Below are positions 5,555-62,727 of a stretch of 64,000 nt of DNA, piece by piece (position 1 is the stretch's first letter; each line of letters begins with the position of its first letter). The notes below the pieces were generated by a model. That model searched no databases. It worked only from the letters and a program-made list of their open reading frames with translations, and was not told the origin of the DNA. The stretch comes from Octopus vulgaris (lineage: Eukaryota). The translations under genes were made by a program, and so were the position numbers. The stretch spans positions 85,436,001 through 85,500,000 of the forward strand of contig OX597822.1 of NCBI GenBank assembly GCA_951406725.2, read 5' to 3'.

Positions 5555-6880
5555 ACCTCCCGTTTTTAACAGTATCTGCGGAAGGAAGAAACTTGTGAAT
5601 AGCATGAATTACATATATGAAGCACAGAAACAAAATGCAGATGGATCTACGACTTACTGGAGATGCGAAATTGGTTCCTGTAATGCTCGAATCCACACCA
5701 TGAAAATTATACCATAATTAAGCACATTGGTGGACATCATCGTAATTCGTGTGCTTCAAAACCCAAAGTTCGCAAAACTTTAGCGGACTTGAAGTCACAA
5801 GCAGCTGCTTGCCAGGAATCTTCTCGTTCATTAATTGCGACTGTTTGTGAAAAGCTTGATGAAAATGAAAAGTCTCACATGCTGCCCTCGACTTCGTGTA
5901 TAACTCGCAATATAAGGAACTGGTGTCAAGCAAAAGCAAGTGCCCCTCCAATCCCTCAGAGTGGATTTGGTTATGAGATACCCGATGAATACAAGTTCTT
6001 AGATAATGGCGAACTTTTCTGGCAGTTTGATAGTAGTGAAACTGATGTAGACAGATTATTCGTCTTTCCAGCTGATAAAGGACTTGATGACTGAGTGAAT
6101 GTAAAACACTGGACAGGTGATGGAACTTTGAAGTGCTCCCCAACTATATTTCATCAGTTGTACATGCTTTATATTCAAGTGGGTCCATTCTGTGTTCCAC
6201 GATTGTTTGCATTACTTCCAAACAAAAATCAAAAAACTTACGTCAGCCTTTTTAATAAAGATAAATGAATTCTGTCAAGGGCTGAGCCCTAAAAATGTTA
6301 TGATGGGTTTTGAAAAAGCTCACATTAATAGCATTTTATCTGTGTATCCTAGAGCTTCCAATATGTACAGAAAAGTATGTGAATTTGACTTTAAGGAGAT
6401 ACCATTATGATAATGAATTTAGCATTAAAATCAAATGTTTTTCAGCGTTGGCTTTTCTTCCTCTCGATGATGTGATTGACGGATTCAAAGATCTTGTAGA
6501 TGATGGCGATCTTCCGCAAGAACTTGTGTTCTACTTTGAATTATGGTACATAGGATGCGTGCGAGGTAGAGGAATTAGACAACGAAGAACTCCTCCTTTG
6601 TTTCCCATTGATAGTTGGAATGTCGGTTTTAGAACAGAATCAGGTATGCCTCATACTAATAACCATTTCGAGGGATATCACAACGCACTACAAAGTTCTT
6701 TGACTTGCACTCATCTGAATCGATGGAAATTAATTCCTGCATTGAAAAAGAGAAGAACTTTTGGCACAACTGAGAAAGGTTGAATTTGATTGGGGTGAGA
6801 TCTGCGAGACCAAAAACAAAAAAGTATAAAGATATAAACTAACGGCTGCAGATAACCATTGAGCGACCTAGTCCCGAAAA
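5555..6880 (+). pseudogene. FLYWCH + MULE DDE transposase pseudogene
   Basis: FLYWCH-like GRKKLVNSMNYIYE...TYWRCEIGSCNARIHT; DDE-region WTGDGTLKCSPTIFHQLY, MMGFEKAHINS, FSALAFLPLDDV, YFELWYIG, PPLFPIDSWNV, HTNNHFEGYHN. Spread over several frames with stops. Confidence 0.88.
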
Positions 6881-11879: not shown

Positions 11880-13348
11880 CTTATTCCTGGTACACTTTAT
11901 GTGGATAGCGGGTTACTACCTGTAACCTTAGATATCTACAATCTTTCAATAGTCTTTCAAGTGCTTAAGACCCACCTGATAATCTTTCCTGTCCCTAAGA
12001 AGCAAACTTTCTCTAGAAACTCTACAGGATATTCTGTTCCAATCTCCTTCAACCATTTGTCTATACCTTTGCTTACAGTTCCCAATGCACCAATTATTAT
12101 AGGCAAAACCTTTACAATTTTCATATTCCAAATTCTTGCAATTCCAAATTTGAAAGGATTGTATTATTTTTGTTTCTCGTCTTTCTTCGCGATCCTGAAA
12201 TCAATTAGTAGGTAACTTCACTTTTCCTTGTCTATTATTGTTATGCCTGGACTATTACTTTCCAGCTTCTTGTCCGTTTGAATAGGAAAGTCCCACAGAA
12301 ACTTACAATTCTCTGACTCCAGTACTCTTTCGACCCGAAGTTCATACAATGTGTCTCCAGCTTCAAATTCCCATTTCTGGCAATGCTTCCGGTGTAAAAC
12401 TTTTACTATTTGAACGTGTCTCCATTTCTTATATTCTTCCTTTGCCAGTTTGGGACATTCTGCAACAATGTGTGCTGCTGTCTCGTTCCCAAGTTCCACA
12501 GACTCTACATTTTTCTAACACATTCTCCCCAATAATATTTTTCCTCAAGTTGTTTGTTTTTATTGCTTGATCTTGGGCTGCTACAATTAGGCTCTCTGTT
12601 TCTTTTTTTTTAAATGTCTTTTTATTTTTAACCCAGCCCTGAATTTTGTTCCATATACATCATCAGCGGCTGTGTAAAATTGACCGTGCAAAGGTTTCTT
12701 TCTAATCTGTTTAACTCGCTCTCGTTCTATTTCATTCTTGTTCTTTTCTCCTATTCAACACTTGATCACCCGTCTTCAGTAGTTTCTCTGTACTGTTCTG
12801 TAAATATTCTAGTAGGCTTTTTTCCTTCCATCTGTGCACACTCTTCCACAGCAATTAAGCCTCTTCCAGCCTGGTCTCTCTTCAGGTACAGCCGGTTGTA
12901 TCGCGGGCTCCATACATTGTCAACAGCTTTCTCGCTTTTCTCCCAAGTTTCTGTATCTCGTTTCTGGTCCAGTCTATAATTACAACTCCATATCTGATTA
13001 GGGTACTGCTCTTAAATTTATTGCTTCAATAACATAGTTTGCATTCCGCTTTGACTGCAATAATTTTCTGACTCTCCTTGTATACTCTCTACTGGTAATT
13101 TGGTTCATATTTTCACGTTTTGTTCCATCTGCTTCCAGTATCCCAAAATGCTTATACCACTGTCCTTTTTCAACCGCTTTCATTGTTTGCCCATTTGGCA
13201 TTTCATTCCCCTGGCTTCCCTCAAATCTTTATTTCATTTTCAACATAGCGCACTTTTCGATCTTAAGTTACATATCTACATCATTGGAGAAAATGCGAAC
13301 ACTATGTATAATACTTTCAAGCTGTTTCTCATTTCATGCATAAATCCT
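11880..13348 (-). mobile_element. 5'-truncated R4/Dong-clade non-LTR retrotransposon (RT thumb + CCHC + restriction-like endonuclease), decayed
   Basis: YKHFGILEADG...REYTRRVRKLLQSKRNANYVIEAINLRAVP; RLYLKRDQAGRGLIAVE; SLIVAAQDQAIKT; ETAAHIVAECPKLAKEEYKKWRH; FLWDFPIQTDKKLESNSPGITIIDK; PIIIGALGTV. Confidence 0.85.
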
Positions 13349-30284: not shown

Positions 30285-30900
30285 TGAACCCAACCAACAC
30301 TCAAGCCTGGACATTTATCGGGTCGGCCGGAACAGCCTTCAAGTGGCAACTGTACAACCACAGGTGCTCTTTCAGGATTCCGGAAAGACGATTTGTCACA
30401 TCCCTGACTAGCCATGTGTGGCGCCTCAGAGATGAAGGGATCCCATACGATAGCAAGTGAATGATCATAGAGTGGCCGGGATCCTACATTAGTGGGAGCG
30501 AATGCTGCAAGATTTGCATAGCTGAGCGAGCAAGGATCCTCAAAGACTTCCTAAAACCAGAATTACTGAACTCTCACCAGGAAATTTACAATCCCTGCGT
30601 CTATTGCAAACGCTACCTGCTGAAAGCATGGGATTCCCCGTTCTTCGGTTAGATCCCAGAAATATCCTTACGAACTAAAAGCAGCGTAAGGGCTAAATTC
30701 CTTGTTGCCCCTCTTTTGGCCCAGATGAACTGATCTAAGTGAGATAGCCCGTCCTCACCGACCCGGATTGTTTATTCTTTGGTCACTTACTGAGTGATCG
30801 TAACGGATTCCTGCCTCCCATAGTTGAAAAGTTGTATTTGTTTTCGGTTTTAGAGTCTGACGGCTCGTCATACTCTAAAGCCGAAGACAAATATAACTGT
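30285..30900 (+). mobile_element. PLE 3' end: GIY-YIG endonuclease C-terminus plus terminal fold-back
   Basis: FIGSAGTAFKWQLYNHRCSFR...TSLTSHVWRLRDEG...CKICIAERARILK...LLNSHQEIYNPC matches the Penelope/Poseidon-type YIG...NH..SFR...CxLCxxE...LLNxRxE pattern. Confidence 0.85.
30830..30898 (+). repeat. 69-nt near-perfect hairpin (27 bp + 1 mismatch + 5 bp, 3-nt loop)
   Basis: Paired base by base; the three non-Watson-Crick stem pairs are G-U on the + strand. Confidence 0.9.
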
Positions 30901-54918: not shown

Positions 54919-55469
54919 TATCATCATCATCATCATCACCATCATCAATCCTGGGCGTAACTGTCACAGGGTCCCAGGTCTGATAGGGTCTGGTTTCCAG
55001 GTTTCCACAGTGAATAATTGACCGAGATCCGGAACAGGACACCGGGCCATAGCAGGGGTGACCCATTTACAGCTGAGTGGACTGGAGCAACGTGAAATGA
55101 AATGTTTTGCTCAAGAGCACAACGTGCTACCCAATCCGGGAATCGAAATCATGATCTAGCGATTAAGAGTTCAAACAGGCCCACCCTTACCTCTTGGCTA
55201 AGTGCATTTACTAGATACACATCGAGTACCTTATATTCAAGTGTAGAGGACCAAACAAGCTGTTACGGCTTCGTCCCTTGACTTTCGCTCACTTAACTCC
55301 CAGCTTCGGTGCCCTTCTAGTTATAAGGGGATAGAGCAGGTCGGGTGGAGGAGGGGTGGGGACAGAGGATTCGCCGTTTTATGCAGCACAGGCCCTGAAG
55401 TACCCAACCATGCAGTATACATTGGGATACCTTGACCTACGTTGTATTTGGTGCAGAGATTATATTATG

Positions 55470-55765
55470 GTGAAGGCGCGTGGCTTAACGGTTAAGGGAT
55501 TTCGGCTCAAGATCGTCAAGGCGTGAGTTCGATTCCTAGGGCGCATTGTGCTCCAGTCCACTCAGTTGGCAAAAATGAGTTGTACCTGTATTTTTAAAGG
55601 TTCAGCCGTGTCACATTTGGTGTCATTCTGAATCTCCCTGAGAACTACGTTAAGGGTTATGAATCTCTGTTGAGTACTCAGTCACTTGCACATTAATTTC
55701 ACGAACAGGCTGTTTCTTTGATCGGATCAACTGGAACACTCATCATCGTAATCGATGGAGGACCA
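55470..55765 (+). mobile_element. tRNA-derived SINE (family C-related)
   Basis: GTGAAGGCGCGTGGCTTAACGGTTAAGG...GAGTTCGATTCC; body shared with 32895-33215. Confidence 0.78.
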
Positions 55766-56484
55766 GTTTCATTATAATATGATAAATAAATTAATGTTTC
55801 CAAGCATGTTTAGTCGATATCTCCAAGCTAAACATTCCTGTCTTCAACGACAAAAATTTAAGTTAAGGACCAGAACATCAAACCACCCAGGTAAATATAT
55901 TTAAAAGTATCAGTTTCCGAAAAGGTCCCAACTGCAGCTTATAAAATATTTGAAATGGCTGCATCCCCCCACCCCCCAAAAAACAAAAAAAAATGAAGTC
56001 TAATATTTTAACGGAAACAAATATTTTGCCTTCAGAAATGATGTTAAGATAATTCTAGCAGAGTAAGAAATAGAAAAATATTCCTCTCTCAAATGTTATG
56101 GTTTCTTGCTACATTTTGGAACTCGTTGCTGACACCGAGAAATCTCGGTGAAATGCTCCAACAAATTCATGACTCAACAGACGATAAATAGTAAAAATGC
56201 AGCTTTTAGTGTTTATTCGTTTCACTGAAAAAGAATAGAAATGAAAAGCACTAAAAAGATGAAGACATTTTTCATATTTTAAATATCTAGAAAATTAGAA
56301 TTATCTTTACAACTCATCTGATGTTATATGTACCAATGGATTCCCGTCTTTGGTCGACTGTGTTTCGAGGTGTTACTATAACTCACTGCTTTCTACATAA
56401 TCGAAACACTGGGTGTTGCAAGTTTTAGATCAAATTACTGAAGTGGTTAATTTTATTAGAAACAGATTTTAAACAGATTTTATT

Positions 56485-56655
56485 GGCGTAGGAGTGGCTG
56501 TGTGGTAAGTAGCTTGCTTACCAACCACATGGTTCCGGGTTCAGTCCCACTGCGTGCCACCTTGTTCAAGTGTCTTCTACTATAGCCTCGGGCCGACCAA
56601 AGCCTTGTGAGTGGATTTGGTAGACGGAAACTGAAAGAAGCCCGTCGTATATATG

Positions 56656-56686
<31 letters not shown>

Positions 56687-56880
56687 ATATGTTTGTGTGT
56701 CTGTGTTTGTCGCCCCAACATCGCTTGACAACCGATGCTGGTGTGTTTACGTCTCCGTAACTTAGCGGTTCGGCAAAAAGAGACCGATAGAATAAGTACT
56801 AGGCTTACAAAGAATAAGTCCTGGGGTCGATTTGCTCGACTAAAGGCGGTGCTGAAACAAGTAAAAAGAGTAAAAAGAGA
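56485..56880 (+). mobile_element. SINE family A, near full length
   Basis: tRNA-like head, internal (TA)/(TG) tract and GTAAAAAGA tail repeat. Confidence 0.9.
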
Positions 56881-57077
56881 GACCTTTGTAAATAGTTGCA
56901 ATTCGAATGTTGGGTTTCTAGCCTGGTATATTTGACAAAGAGGATAATTCAATGCCTTAAGATCTTGAACAGAAGTATGTAAAGAAAAACGAAAATATAT
57001 TGAAACCTGCAACAAAAATAATAATTGGGAACAGAAAAAGGTAAAAGACGTTAATCTTGAATTATTTTACTTTAGAA

Positions 57078-57372
57078 GAGTGGTTCTCCATTTGACCCCT
57101 GAGGGTCCATAATAGATTTTTAGGGGTTCACGCTAGAAAAACAGTAAACTGGGAATCTGCTGTAATATTTTAAAGGTCCGTGAAACTTTTTGTTTTAGAA
57201 ATAGCAAGATTTCTTTCCCAAACGTTTTACATAATTCATGAAACGAGAAATAGTAATTTTGAAAGAAATATCTATAAAACTAGTATTTAAACATCAAATT
57301 GTTATGGGGACCCACCGGAGTAAAATAGTAATCAAAAAGGGCCCATGGATGAAGAATGATTGAGAAACGCTG
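57078..57372. mobile_element. hAT (Charlie-like) MITE with 8-bp target duplication
   Basis: Termini GAGTGGTTCTC and GAGAAACGCTG; flanks CTTTAGAA (57070-77) and CTTTGGAA (57373-80). Confidence 0.78.
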
Positions 57373-57879
57373 CTTTGGAAGGTAAAACTCATATAAATGA
57401 AGTGATTTCTTTCATAATTGAGTAGTTGACAATTCTAGAAGAGAAACTGAGCTATTATCTTCAATCTTTAAACATAGAACAGTGTAATAAATTTAAAAGC
57501 TCTATATGGTAATACCAACTAATTTAGGTCTGAAATTATCTGAAGAAGACGAATTGGTTTCTACGCCTAATTTGTCGTGGTCTAAAAATCAAATATGAAG
57601 TGGGGGTCTCTCTTGAAAATGTTTACCTTCCATCTAAGAAGAATATCCTACAATAGTTTTATCAATTTTAATCTATTATTTTTCAATAAATTATTTATGT
57701 GAAATTAATGGCAAATTGACAAAATCAATAGAGCTTTGAACAAAATGTCTCGTGGTATTTGTTCCAACTCTCGGCCGTTTGAATTCAATTCATGGTTGGC
57801 TTTATCTTGCCCCATGTTTGGAGTCGATTAAAAAACACCAATCGAGGAGGACAGTGAGTTGGCCGAAAGGTTTGCGAGT

Positions 57880-58290
57880 CGGACTAAATGCCTTTCGATA
57901 TGTATTCCGGCATTGTGTGTTCTACCTTTAACCACTGCGATGACACTGGTACCCAGTTGTATCGAGAAAAGTCGATGACCTTTTTTCCCCTTAAATAAAC
58001 ATCAGCGATGTGAGGCGGGCAGATTTGTATACACAGGCAAATGCTGCCAGTCTTCCTCAAAGAAAGCATTTCCCAGGCTTTTACATTTAAGAACAGATCA
58101 ATGTTCAGTCGTGATCCACTAAGACCCTTTTTATTTATATAAATCAGGATTTTCTTTATTGATTCCATGCGAAAAAGAGGACACTATTCAATGCATTGAG
58201 AAAGAAATGAAAGTCTGTTTATCGCAAAGACGTCTCCTTATATTGAAAACATGGCTGAAGAACATCAGTCAGCTTTCACACAAACAGGAT
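57880..58290 (-). mobile_element. Possible PLE RT remnant
   Basis: ILFVKAD and ICLCIQICPPHIADVYL weakly resemble the PLE ADK and GxCIGSxxAPxxADxYL motifs. Confidence 0.35.
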
Positions 58291-58554
58291 TAATAAATGT
58301 CACTAATAACTGTGTATCGTTTTTTGTTTTGTTTCATTTTTTTTTTGTTCTTCTGAAATTTGAACTTTAAAACATGATTTAAAAAACTGTTCAAACACTC
58401 CAGTAACGTCATATTTAATCTGTGATACATCCCAAACCATAGGGTTGTTTGACATCCTAGAAATAGCAGCAAATTTTTCCCAAAACTACACCCTACCGTC
58501 TTAAGAGTAGATACAATATGTATTCCTTTCTGCTATAGGTACAAGGCCTGAAAC

Positions 58555-58680
58555 TGGCTTTGGTCGGCCCGAGGCTCTAGTAGAAAACACTTGCCAAATG
58601 TGCCACGCAGCGGGGCTGAACCCGGAACCATGTGGTTGGGAAGCAAGCTTCTTACCACACAGCCACTCCTGCGGCGCCTA
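58555..58680 (-). mobile_element. SINE family A head
   Basis: Reverse of GGCGCCGCAGGAGTGGCTGTGTGGTAAGAAGCTTGC. Confidence 0.82.
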
Positions 58681-58871
58681 CATACAAAATCAGTTTCATA
58701 ATATTTCTTACTAAATAATTTGTCTGAATTGCTTCGTGTTTCGGCGTCTGTGGCAGCGCATGGGTGGGAGTATGTGCGTCTGTATGAATGTGCGCTTGTA
58801 TGTGTGAGTGTGTGTAAGTGCGTAAGTGTGTGTAAGTGTTTGCGAGTTTGTGTGTACGTGCATATGTGTGT

Positions 58872-58909
<38 letters not shown>

Positions 58910-59219
58910 GTGTATATGTAAATGTAGTTGTGTGCAATGTATATTTGCAGAAAGGTGATCCGTGTCTAACCCCTGGGGCCAGTTGTGTGTCGAGGGTGAG
59001 AGTTGGGGGAGTGGGTGAAAGGTTTTGAAACAGGAAGGTAAGGGGTTTGATGTAACGGAACTCGGTAAACATGTGACAGCTGTGTCAATAGTTAGGTCAC
59101 ATGACTGCACAAATATTCGATAAGACACGCCCGTTTACATCTGATCCCGTTTAGTCCCGTTTGCGACGTTAGACCATTTATGTTGTTCATGATCAGGTTG
59201 CTGTTGCTGCTGCTGCTGC

Positions 59220-59253
<34 letters not shown>

Positions 59254-59669
59254 GCTGTTGTTTTTGCTGTGGTTGCTATTGTTGTTGTAATCTTTCTTAT
59301 GACAAAAAATGTTATTAATACAAACCCATTACCAGTTCAAATATATTTTCGAGGCTTATTCGAACTTGTAATCAAGCTATTTACAGTATTTTGTGATGGA
59401 GAAGATTTCTTGCTGCAGGCAAACCGGTGTAGATACAACCGAGTCAGTTCACAACATTGCCTAACCAGAGGGACCTGTCCCTCCTTGTCAGCTTGCAGCA
59501 CTTCACTTTCCGAAAAGTGATGACTCCGTGTATTTACACCACTTTGTCAACAGCGAGAAATTTTCTCCAACGCAAAGTGCAGTGAATGGCTTTCTCGCGG
59601 GTACGAACTTGCCTCAAGCATATTTGAAACCCACAAAGAAAGCCATTCGCCGTATAGTTATAAATTCTG

Positions 59670-59866
59670 CTTTAGAAATATTTATTGCAACAAACAGCTG
59701 GGTTTCTTTCTCTCGAGTTATTTTGTTATTTTGTGAAAAGCACAATAGGAATTTTGAAAGAAGTCCCTATAAAACTAGTTTTTAAACAGCCAATGGCTAT
59801 GGAGGTCCACTAAAATGGAATAGTAATCAGAGGGGTCCGTAGGTGCAAAATGGCTGAGAACCGCTG
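59670..59866. mobile_element. hAT MITE, right half
   Basis: Body shared with 57200-57372; terminus TGAGAACCGCTG. Confidence 0.65.
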
Positions 59867-60625
59867 GGCTCTATAAAGACACCGTCATCACCAGCCTAAC
59901 TCCACCAGTGGTTGAGTGACTATTCTAATTAGTGTAGCACTTGTTGTATTTATAATTGATGCTATTCCATTCATTGGACTGCGGCCATCCTGGGGTACCA
60001 CCAATAAGGGTTTTAGTCGATCCTCAAGACTCTGGTACTGTTCATGGCTTCATCGGTTTCAAACCTGGAAAACTAAAACACCTTGCACAAAAGATCTCAA
60101 CTATTATCCACATCAATAAAGCGCGTAACTTTTTTTCCTTGTTAACCATTTGTATACAAAAGAATATCAAAAATAAGTATAAATGCCTGGATATTGGTGG
60201 ACATCATGTTCTTGAATCCCAAGTCAGCCCTTGTCCAACAAATTTAGGATTAAAGGTCTTCTAGTTGTGACCATCTCTATTATTTTTAACTGCATATATA
60301 GGACAATATTTTCCAATATTTTTGCTCTCAGATAAGGGGGCGAACTGGTAGCACCGAGAAAAAGGCTTGGCAGTATCTCTTCTGACTTTACATTCTGACT
60401 CCAAATGCCGCCGGGGTCTACTTTTTGCCTTTCATCTTTTTGTGGGGGTCGATAAAATAATCGACTTATCCCCTCCTCTAAAATTGTCAGCTCTGTGCTA
60501 AAATTTGAAATCAATATTTTGCTCTTTGCAAAAAAAGTGTAATTTGAAGTCTGTTTTAGTTGCTGATTCTAGTAGATCGGGCAACCACATAGAGGCTACC
60601 TCACTGGGTCACTAATGATCTTTCT

Positions 60626-60856
60626 TATTTCTTTATTGCCCACAAGGGGCTAAACATAGAGGGGACAAACAAGGACAGACAGACGGATTAAGCCGATTAT
60701 ATCGACCCCAGTACGTAACTGGTACTTAATTTATCGACCCCGAAAGGATGAAAGGCAAAGTCGACCTAGGCGGAATTTGAACTCAGAACGTAGCGGCAGA
60801 CGAAATACCACTCAGCATTTCTCTCAGCGCGCTAACGTTTCTGCCAGCTCGTCGCC
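60626..60856 (-). mobile_element. SINE family B, young copy with target-site duplication
   Basis: Full body flanked by CTAATGATCTTTCT at 60612-60625 and 60856-60869. Confidence 0.92.
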
Positions 60857-61326
60857 TAATGATCTTTCTATCTTCCCTCTCCCCACCCGCAATGAGTGGT
60901 ACAAATTGTTTATGTACGATTTTGTCCCAAATAAGGTGTGAGGCTAGAGTAGTGCAATTGAGAAGAAAGACTAGAAAGAAAGGGCAGAAACCAGAAAGAA
61001 ACAAGGGGTATTGAGAGCCAAAGAGCAGCAATTTGAAGAAAGATGTTATTAGAATAAAAGGACTTAGGACTAACAGGAAGCTCAATAGAGAAACAATGCG
61101 CCGGGCAGGAGAATCGGATGACATGGGTCTTTACAGAGCGTAGAAGACCAGAAAGTTCATCCGTCAAAGCTTTTCTTACGCAAAAAGACATTCACCCAAT
61201 GTGTTTTCTAACTGCTAGCATTGGTATTGACTTGGGTTACTTGATTAGTTTATAGAGAAAGGTCCCTCTGTTAAAATTTTTAAAAAATTTAATTGTTATA
61301 CTTTAACATCACACACAGCGTGTGTG

Positions 61327-61436
<110 letters not shown>

Positions 61437-61739
61437 TGTGTGTATTTTAATATATGGTGTATCTAAGTAAATTCCTTTCTCGAATTCGAGTTTCATGCCA
61501 CCGCGATTGTCAAGCGAGAACTGGTTCACCACCGATTAACACAGGACAATGAGGTTTATTCATCTACTCTTCGAAGATAAAGCTTCTCATCGTCGCTACT
61601 CTGAATTCTGAATTTATCATTTCTGTATTCTACATAGGCACATCAGATTTGTAGGGAAACTAAAAGCAGAAGCAACAATGAGAAGCATCAATTTCCAATT
61701 AATTGATATATACAATACTCTCCTATATATATATATATA

Positions 61740-61856
61740 TAGAATAAGTACTGGGCTTACAAAGAATAAGTCCCGGGGTCGAGTTGCTCGATTAAAGGCG
61801 GTGCTCCAGCATGGCCGCAGTCAAATGACTGAAACAAGTAAAAGAGTAAAGAGTAA
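61740..61856 (+). mobile_element. SINE family A 3' end
   Basis: AGAATAAGTACTGGGCTTACAAAGAATAAGTCC...CTGAAACAAGTAAAAGAGTAAAGAG. Confidence 0.85.
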
Positions 61857-61859
61857 TGA

Positions 61860-61906
<47 letters not shown>

Positions 61907-61964
61907 TTTATACACACACATATATATATATATATACATACTTTATTTAAAGCAGCAGAAAATT

Positions 61965-62020
61965 CAACAAAATCTGTTACTCTGAGTTTCTCGTTGCCGT
62001 TCATCAGACAGTTTTTGCTA
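61965..62020 (-). ncRNA. Type I hammerhead ribozyme
   Basis: UAGCAAAAACUGU-CUGAUGA-ACGGCAACGA-GAAA-CUCAGAG-UA/ACAGAUUUUGUUG: intact core, helix I with 12 of 13 pairs, GCAA-looped mini helix II, self-complementary helix III, GUA site (cut 61978/61977), AAUAAA downstream. Confidence 0.78.
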
Positions 62021-62052
62021 TACATATATATATACACACACACACATATAGA

Positions 62053-62108
<56 letters not shown>

Positions 62109-62217
62109 CATTTTAATAGTAATGGTATGACAACAAAAGAATGAATGAGACCGCGATATTATGTAAATAGAGGAATTTATCTGTAATATGAAATGTGACA
62201 ATTATTCGGTTGCCATT

Positions 62218-62276
62218 ATAAAACTCCGAGTTTCGGATATCAGGGCGGATGCCTACTCCGGTATCTCGTCAGTTAT
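62218..62276 (-). ncRNA. Type I hammerhead ribozyme with long helix II
   Basis: AUAA-CUGACGA-GAUACCGGAGUAGGCAUCCGCCCUGAUAUCC-GAAA-CUCGGAG-UU/UUAU: intact core, 4-bp helix I, helix III ACUC-G-GAGU, GUU site (cut 62222/62221). Confidence 0.62.
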
Positions 62277-62286
62277 CAAGAAAATC

Positions 62287-62347
<61 letters not shown>

Positions 62348-62406
62348 GGAATAGTTAGTATGAATCATTTTATGGAATAAATTATATAAAATTCGTGGAT
62401 AAGGTC

Positions 62407-62495
62407 GGAATAATGCGAAATAAATCTAAGTCACCATTGACCTGTTTTCTTGTGATTTTCTCGTGATTTACCTTGGATTAATTTCGCATTGTTCC
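62407..62495. repeat. Inverted repeat with 24-bp arms inside a (TA)n-flanked segment
   Basis: GGAATAATGCGAAATAAATCTAAG pairs with CTTGGATTAATTTCGCATTGTTCC. Confidence 0.75.
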
Positions 62496-62513
62496 AGTCT
62501 CACCCACGTATTT

Positions 62514-62517
<4 letters not shown>

Positions 62518-62577
<60 letters not shown>

Positions 62578-62691
62578 GTGTATGTATGTATGTATGTATG
62601 TATGTATGTATGTATGTATATACACACACAGACCTATCTACGTATGCGTGTCTATTTATATATATGTATGTCTATATATAAATATATGTAC

Positions 62692-62727
<36 letters not shown>

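Follow-up and report, generated by a model that had tools for sequence, protein, structure and literature searches.

The systems closest to the locus described here are the PLEs of the Hydra clade and, through their hammerheads, the metazoan PLEs in general, the animal non-LTR retrozymes and the double-hammerheads of ASBVd and newt satellite 2; they are outlined from the accessible parts of the papers cited. The Hydra clade is defined by the RWK and DKT motifs, a CxCx5C linker, CxxC and CxH motifs in the C-terminal endonuclease and the lack of DKG, and nearly all of its members insert in (TA)n (PMC8557442). Metazoan PLE hammerheads are mostly dispersed single motifs of truncated PLEs, nearby motifs are often located on opposite strands, and a palindromic helix III is one of their described traits; single minimal PLE hammerheads displayed no detectable cleavage in vitro, and dimers displayed a low one (PMC4209133). 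Animal non-LTR retrozymes derive from PLE pseudo-LTRs, and their type I hammerheads, two in the same orientation, are separated by some hundreds of bases of low-GC DNA (PMC7229834; bioRxiv 10.64898/2026.07.22.740005). In the double-hammerheads of ASBVd and newt satellite 2, the short self-complementary helices III of two motifs can merge (PMC6466107, PMC6765202).

The genome under study (2.8 Gb, 227 contigs) was analysed over a window of 64 kb, i.e., the whole stretch of DNA presented above, which is rich in microsatellites (150 TRF rows). An earlier note on this DNA had described two hammerheads on its minus strand, with the cuts and the helix III strands reported in Table 1, and the motif scan found all of them, at the positions given there. 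Both motifs, referred to as HH1 and HH2, are of type I and contain the CUGANGA and GAAA boxes, an NUH triplet and three helices, with helix I open. They are the only two sites within the 64-kb window matching GAAACTC-N-GAGT, as well as the only scan matches in the window with a 4-bp helix I, the two other matches having 1 bp. Rfam, searched over the whole window at gathering thresholds, returned no match. The shuffle z-scores of the isolated motifs are weak (-0.10 for HH1 and -1.92 for HH2), as expected for minimal hammerheads. By their short helix I and palindromic helix III, the two motifs resemble the minimal type I hammerheads of metazoan PLEs in the parts available of Cervera and De la Pena 2014 (PMC4209133). 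HH1 retains G-C at 10.1-11.1, with an extra C ahead of GAAA; in HH2, as in most of the listed copies of its family, the G10.1-C11.1 pair closing helix II is replaced by A.A, unlike the metazoan PLE hammerheads, where it is conserved (PMC4209133), and unlike the Hydra-clade hammerheads (PMC8557442), as far as the accessible parts of these papers describe them. The predicted cuts are computed to lie 244 nt apart.

Table 1. Features of the hammerhead locus; positions are numbered along the window.
Feature	Positions	Strand	Description
HH1 motif	62218..62276	-	Type I hammerhead; CUGACGA core 62272-62266; from scan and folding
HH1 helix I		-	4 A-U pairs, then G.A at the fifth position of the window copy
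HH1 helix II	62265-62236	-	Long, interrupted; extra C (62235) before GAAA
HH1 helix III	62231-62223	-	ACUC-G-GAGU; GUU triplet; predicted cut 62222/62221
HH2 motif	61968..62017	-	Minimal type I hammerhead; CUGAUGA core 62007-62001; from scan and folding
HH2 helix I		-	4 bp, A.A, then further pairs
HH2 helix II		-	2 bp, GCAA loop; A.A in place of the 10.1-11.1 pair
HH2 helix III	61987-61979	-	GAAA, then ACUC-A-GAGU; GUA triplet; predicted cut 61978/61977
Hypothetical cut-to-cut fragment	61978..62221	-	244 nt (computed), 24% GC; mostly F1 tail and microsatellite
F1 remnant	62113..62286	-	~174 bp; pseudo-LTR remnant, i.e., 3' end of a copy of the older PLE family (F1) truncated at 5'
F2 remnant	61941..62020	-	3' end (last 80 bp) of a 5'-truncated copy of F2, the young Hydra-clade PLE family
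(TA)n/(TG)n microsatellite spacer	62021..62112	.	Shared insertion target; TRF array 62019-62108; sequence
(TA)28 tract	62290..62345	.	Borders the F1 remnant on its truncated (5') side; TRF
(TA)n tract	61861..61940	.	Borders the F2 remnant on its 3' side; TRF

The surroundings of the two motifs consist of repeat debris. A fragment of a very abundant short repeat, presumably a SINE, occupies positions 61739-61860 (plus strand) and abuts the same TA tract as the F2 remnant; it matches many of the fetched loci and dominates the cover by assembled contigs. These contigs, from runs guessed to be RNA, were matched to 61500-62700 and 54960-61310; they cover almost only repeats, none of them lies over HH2 or the unique flanks, and they are neutral on transcription. 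No host exon is evident by eye in the ORF listing of the window and of the next 10 kb. Other degenerate elements are present elsewhere in the window: a remnant of a Hydra-like endonuclease at 30299-30643 (plus strand), belonging to a third family and 29% identical (E 2e-11) to the F2 protein described below; broken ORF pieces at 5684-6780 (plus strand), similar by eye to FLYWCH/MULE-type transposases; and others at 11949-13228 (minus strand), resembling by eye the C-terminal region of non-LTR retrotransposons.

HH2 belongs to a young family, F2. The window piece of this family is identical at 79 of 80 bases to a full-length copy retrieved from the genome, and the pattern of the HH2 type has 4,498 genome matches versus 0 for the reversed control, with 4,241 matches for a 16-base F2 marker. 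Most of 100 listed HH2-type matches are identical to the window motif, and many of them are arranged as outward-facing inverted pairs or in tandem, the tandem copies being 3.35 kb apart. Tandem F2 copies enclose an ORF of 727 aa (loci L065 and L066), whose product (P0001, L066:5319-7502) displays RWK at position 53, DKT at 129, CxCx5C at 578, CxxC at 683 and CxH at 711, with YRDD present and DKG absent. P0001 has no Pfam match at E 0.1 and no PDB sequence match at E 1, so that the assignment of the family rests on motifs and such elements escape standard domain annotation. By its protein motifs, F2 is assigned to the Hydra-clade PLEs, whose other traits it also displays, namely (TA)n insertion, tandem pseudo-LTRs and inverted truncated copies. 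In the parts available of Craig et al. 2021 (PMC8557442), Hydra-clade PLEs have, like F2, a single ORF (~710 aa from the first Met in F2) with the same motifs, as well as (TA)n targeting, a hammerhead close to the 3' terminus, truncated copies in tandem or inverted arrangement and an extension at one end; the F2 unit is longer (~3.35 kb, with an extension of 71 nt) than those described there (<3 kb and 30-40 bp). An interpretation of the inverted F2 pairs as a DNA transposon was rejected, the inverted arms varying in length and enclosing the PLE ORF.

The right ends of F2 are of two exact kinds among 50 fetched copies. In 24 of them, as in the window piece, the element stops at a short terminus, AATAAAG, followed by TA; in the other 26 it continues into the extension, mostly of 71 nt and usually followed by TA. 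These two ends may record a staggered cut or the template of integration. The locus L066 (G000:C1:64214606-64222054) is a near-perfect palindrome of 7.5 kb containing two F2 tandem units, with arms 99.8% identical, one of which carries the intact 727-aa ORF; this palindrome is a very recent insertion. Young F2 copies share the canonical core CUGAUGA with A.A at 10.1-11.1, and in older F2-like subfamilies (L082, L089, L094, L109, L111 and L112) the core is often CCGACGA instead, accompanied by an A10.1-U11.1 pair.

HH1 is assigned, from its sequence relatives, to the 3' end of an older PLE family, F1. A DNA search with 62110-62290 returned 2166 candidates, the best 40 of which were 88-91% identical (the window itself scoring 100%); a pattern of 25 bases spanning helix III matches the genome exactly at 2,200 places, versus 0 for the reversed control, and a 17-base marker of the F1 tail has 2,891 matches. 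Given the zero counts of the controls for both families, neither motif is a chance string. The 3' end of the family is fixed, since the great majority of 30 listed ends stop at one position and are followed by TA or a related microsatellite. F1 is known from 3'-end copies and ORF fragments, with no full-length copy among those retrieved. In one locus (L028), a remnant of the endonuclease lies upstream of F1 on the same strand and is 30% identical to P0001 (E 4e-20); a second endonuclease remnant (L002) and weak N-terminal matches (L074 and L092) complete the Hydra-type ORF fragments that may be linked to this family.

The structure of the F1 hammerhead was checked on an alignment of 57 motifs, i.e., the 60 found by a pattern allowing 2 substitutions minus 3 with indels. 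In this alignment, 91.8% of the cells are paired and 42 cells are changed on both sides, against 15.0 +/- 6.8 in shuffled alignments (0/500) and 2-7 with slid partners; the covarying pairs (6 versus 4.1 shuffled, 64/500) are not significant. Compensatory changes are found in helix II between subfamilies. Since helices I and III are partly fixed by the selecting pattern and most of the changed cells correspond to two subfamily-level events, this covariation gives the structure modest support. The fifth pair of helix I is formed in 51 of the 57 copies and is G.A in that of the window. Some F1 subfamilies carry CCGAAGA.

In the accessible parts of the literature on octopus and Penelope hammerheads, no description of the F1 or F2 hammerheads was found, and the supplement of PMC8557442 may list related families. 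When compared by eye with the motif of Hydra-1_oBim in what was available of that paper, both hammerheads differ from it, so that they appear to belong to other families. Among the families described there, Hydra-2_aMil combines a CUGU/ACAG helix I, as around HH2, with an ACUC-G-GAGU helix III, as around HH1 (PMC8557442). The earlier note had related the two motifs to the minimal hammerheads of PLEs, and the copy families F1 and F2, with the F2 ORF lying between tandem copies, bear this out.

The same note had gone further, and had proposed that the helix III strands of HH1 and HH2, forming only strained hairpins alone, pair with each other as 4+4 bp around one mismatch, making a hetero double-hammerhead that cuts at both sites and releases a 244-nt RNA able to circularise as in retrozymes. 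Some observations are in agreement with this proposal. The motifs are co-oriented, and their 244-nt spacing falls inside the 170-400 nt range reported for animal retrozyme RNAs in the available part of PMC7229834. As a duplex, moreover, the cross-pairing is real: the 4+4 bp around a G.A mismatch are worth -7.8 kcal/mol, and imposing them costs only 0.5 kcal/mol, with a modelled probability of cross-pairing of 0.11-0.17. The description of the strands when alone holds in part and is slightly overstated, since an isolated hairpin of 3 bp with a 3-nt loop is possible, at +2.1 kcal/mol.

However, the match between the two helices III is not a property of this pair. ACUC-N-GAGU is the consensus of both F1 and F2, which makes the HH1/HH2 match uninformative; it is conserved exactly at the matched copy in 22 of the 30 best F1 loci, and is also found in five of the 25 Hydra-clade families of File S2 of PMC8557442 as far as it was available (in coral, sea cucumber and hydra). 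These comparisons indicate that the helix III match is an inherited, clade-wide trait of the hammerheads of Hydra PLEs.

A second argument comes from helix I. On topological grounds, if the two helices III merge, A15.1 of one motif (X) would pair with U16.1 of the other (Y), and each active site would combine CUGANGA, helix II and GAAA of X with the part supplied by Y, namely the GAGU-H strand with the scissile base, and the helix I arm 3' to it. A swap of helix III therefore requires that helix I also pairs across, the 5' arm of X with the 3' arm of Y; should helix I instead remain in cis, GAAA and the scissile base would be placed at opposite ends of a 9-nt duplex. This requirement is an argument made here, no statement of it having been found in the PLE and double-hammerhead literature in the portions accessible. 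When the helix I arms of HH1 and HH2 are swapped, the first position is A.A in one combination and U.U in the other, with 0 and 0 contiguous pairs and a modelled probability of 0.000, whereas the in-silico same-family controls of both families give 4 and 4 pairs. The same result was obtained on a wider set of 36 F1 and 26 F2 distinct helix I arm pairs: in the two cross-family combinations, 97% and 90% of the cases give 0 pairs, versus at least 4 pairs in 69% (F1) and 65% (F2) of the within-family ones. The ASBVd and newt satellite 2 double-hammerheads are made of two copies of a single sequence, so that pairing in helix I survives the swap (PMC6466107, PMC6765202), which is not the case for HH1 and HH2, and the PLE dimers published in PMC4209133, in its accessible parts, likewise consist of like motifs, unlike the two co-oriented motifs of different families in the window. 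It is thus the lack of relationship between the two helices I, which the earlier note had itself recorded, that rules out the hetero-dimer: no functional hetero double-hammerhead is predicted for HH1 and HH2, and the cross-pairing of their helices III would be a dead-end duplex without an active site. Helix I is family-specific, so that it likely sets the specificity of the partner in dimer cleavage.

The genome-wide distribution of F1-F2 neighbours was then counted by looking for the F2 marker 50-350 nt downstream of the F1 marker; the markers being exact, the counts are lower bounds. At least 6 co-oriented and at least 4 opposed occurrences were found, at 7 distinct sites (three sites being in both counts), with no orientation bias (binomial p 0.75). 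This closeness is 6-9 times the expectation of 0.66 per orientation under a null of uniform placement irrespective of TA tracts, and it may be attributed to the common TA target, since insertion of both families into the TA tract that ends F1 should give an excess in both orientations. In the reverse order, F2 then F1, there was a single match, and it had no second sense motif that is intact. At the five co-oriented sites outside the window, the spacers are different and contain an antisense copy of F2, so that none of them is a copy of the window unit. Among the 7 sites, on the other hand, a sense F2 with no antisense copy in between is found at the window site alone, which counts against the reading of an ordinary co-insertion preferred below.

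A further survey of co-oriented helix III pairs within 60-500 nt gave 404 cases in the genome versus 7 in the control. This figure was rejected as a count of hammerhead pairs, since only 4 of 34 rows (from 30 fetched loci) had two intact CUGANGA cores and many rows are antisense readings of a near-palindrome. One of the 4 is a hetero pair, with swapped helices I of 0 and 0 pairs, and three are same-family pairs, with 4-6 bp. In L105 (G000:C2:103794197-103794406, minus strand), two intact and identical F2 hammerheads form a direct tandem with a spacing of 198 nt; no antisense copy separates them, and their swapped helices I have 4 and 4 bp. L092 (G000:C1:82136153-82136583, minus strand) contains a direct tandem of F1-type hammerheads, both intact and spaced by 419 nt, with swapped helices I of 6 and 5 bp and a spacer that includes the broken start of a Hydra-like ORF. 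In L110 (G000:C5:129824191-129824741), a 179-bp unit composed of an F2-like 3' end and its extension is repeated 3.8 times; it was rejected as a retrozyme, the CUGANGA half of the hammerhead being missing.

As for the relationship with retrozymes, the window locus shares with them the same orientation of two type I hammerheads, their spacing of some hundreds of bases, the low GC content and the derivation from PLE pseudo-LTRs; unlike the non-LTR retrozymes described in the accessible parts of PMC7229834 and bioRxiv 10.64898/2026.07.22.740005, it is not a tandem of a single unit and is not multicopy as a unit, its motifs are unlike, and it is known here from DNA alone. The two motifs come from different families and TRF shows only microsatellites at this locus; likewise, 0 of the 5 other co-oriented sites repeat the junction of the window (with exact markers, a lower bound). 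The chimeric retrozyme-like unit suggested in the earlier note is therefore neither amplified nor biased in orientation (6 co-oriented versus 4 opposed pairs, with no further copy of the unit found with exact markers), and does not correspond to the definition of a retrozyme.

The reading that best accounts for the whole of these data, to which a probability of roughly 0.86 is assigned, is that the window contains the truncated 3' ends of two high-copy PLE families in one TA microsatellite, likely as the result of independent insertion, and that these are predicted not to work as a hetero-dimer. The independent insertion into one (TA)n tract, which had been anticipated, finds support in the two families and in their exact 3' termini beside (TA)n. 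F1, whose copy is ~10% diverged from its best relatives, would have been the first to insert; F2, with a near-identical copy, would have followed, entering the TA tract that borders F1 at 3'. Both insertions were probably 5'-truncated products of target-primed retrotransposition. Hammerheads of intact elements would likely find a partner of their own family in the tandem pseudo-LTR, so that helix I can be swapped along with helix III; in the window, the available partner belongs to the wrong family, and helix III would cross-pair without generating an active site. Some observations speak against this reading, namely the excess of F1-F2 neighbours over uniform placement, the sense arrangement peculiar to the window site, the two intact cores and the cross-pairing of helix III, which is predicted to be populated part of the time. 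Nevertheless, the pair is likely an ordinary co-insertion of PLE remnants and, as far as the folding models indicate, the locus is most likely inert.

It might alternatively be supposed that the motifs act independently, each as a monomer whose helix III has 3 bp or together with an RNA of its own family in trans; a minus-strand transcript passing through would then now and then be cut at one site or at both, and the 244-nt RNA would be set free with no hetero-dimer involved. Both catalytic cores and NUH triplets are intact, the 3-bp helix III with its 3-nt loop can form, HH2 has kept its extended helix I (pair probability about 0.3-0.7), the compensatory changes in helix II of F1 between subfamilies point in the same direction, and thousands of same-family copies are possible partners. 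In the native context, however, the active monomer folds cost 13.3 kcal/mol for HH1, 5.8 for HH2 and 19.0 for both, although these costs are rough, as nearest-neighbour models ignore the stabilisation of the core; the low cost of HH2 is favourable to this explanation, those of HH1 and of the two motifs together are not. Moreover, the window HH1 has lost the fifth pair of helix I, HH2 is without G10.1-C11.1 and has a helix II of just 2 bp, the single minimal PLE motifs in the accessible part of PMC4209133 are without detectable cleavage, and no host gene or promoter was identified by eye in the ORF listing. On balance, independent cutting is unlikely. Still lower is the chance of a longer chain of events, in which a read-through transcript would be cut at both sites (by the monomers or by same-family RNA in trans) and the resulting 244-nt chimeric RNA circularised by a host ligase; in this reading, the common (TA)n targeting would bring different hammerhead-bearing PLE families into the same tracts, and a retrozyme would have arisen by accident from parents that are unrelated.

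That the pair is kept by selection as a host regulatory element, e.g., as a transcript terminator or an RNA processing site, is more improbable again. The intact cores, and the AATAAA at the F2 end just 3' of HH2, would fit with such a role; however, the intactness of HH2 is explained by its youth, given the near-identity to the full-length copy, the drift of HH1 equals that of its siblings and has cost it one pair of helix I, and the surroundings are repeat debris with no evident host exon. The hetero double-hammerhead is the least credible of all, its favourable helix III duplex, co-orientation and spacing being outweighed by the two helices I that fail to pair when swapped, by the clade-wide nature of the helix III identity and by the lack of amplification and of orientation bias.

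Taken as two truncated PLE ends in one microsatellite, the locus adds two more PLE families and one chance co-insertion, and matters little as it stands; the lesson to be drawn is that the swapped helix I should be checked before hetero-dimers are proposed. The same-family short tandems of L105 and L092 are better candidates than the window pair for the birth of a retrozyme. Were the chimeric-RNA reading true, the locus would show how retrozymes arise from unrelated PLE ends.
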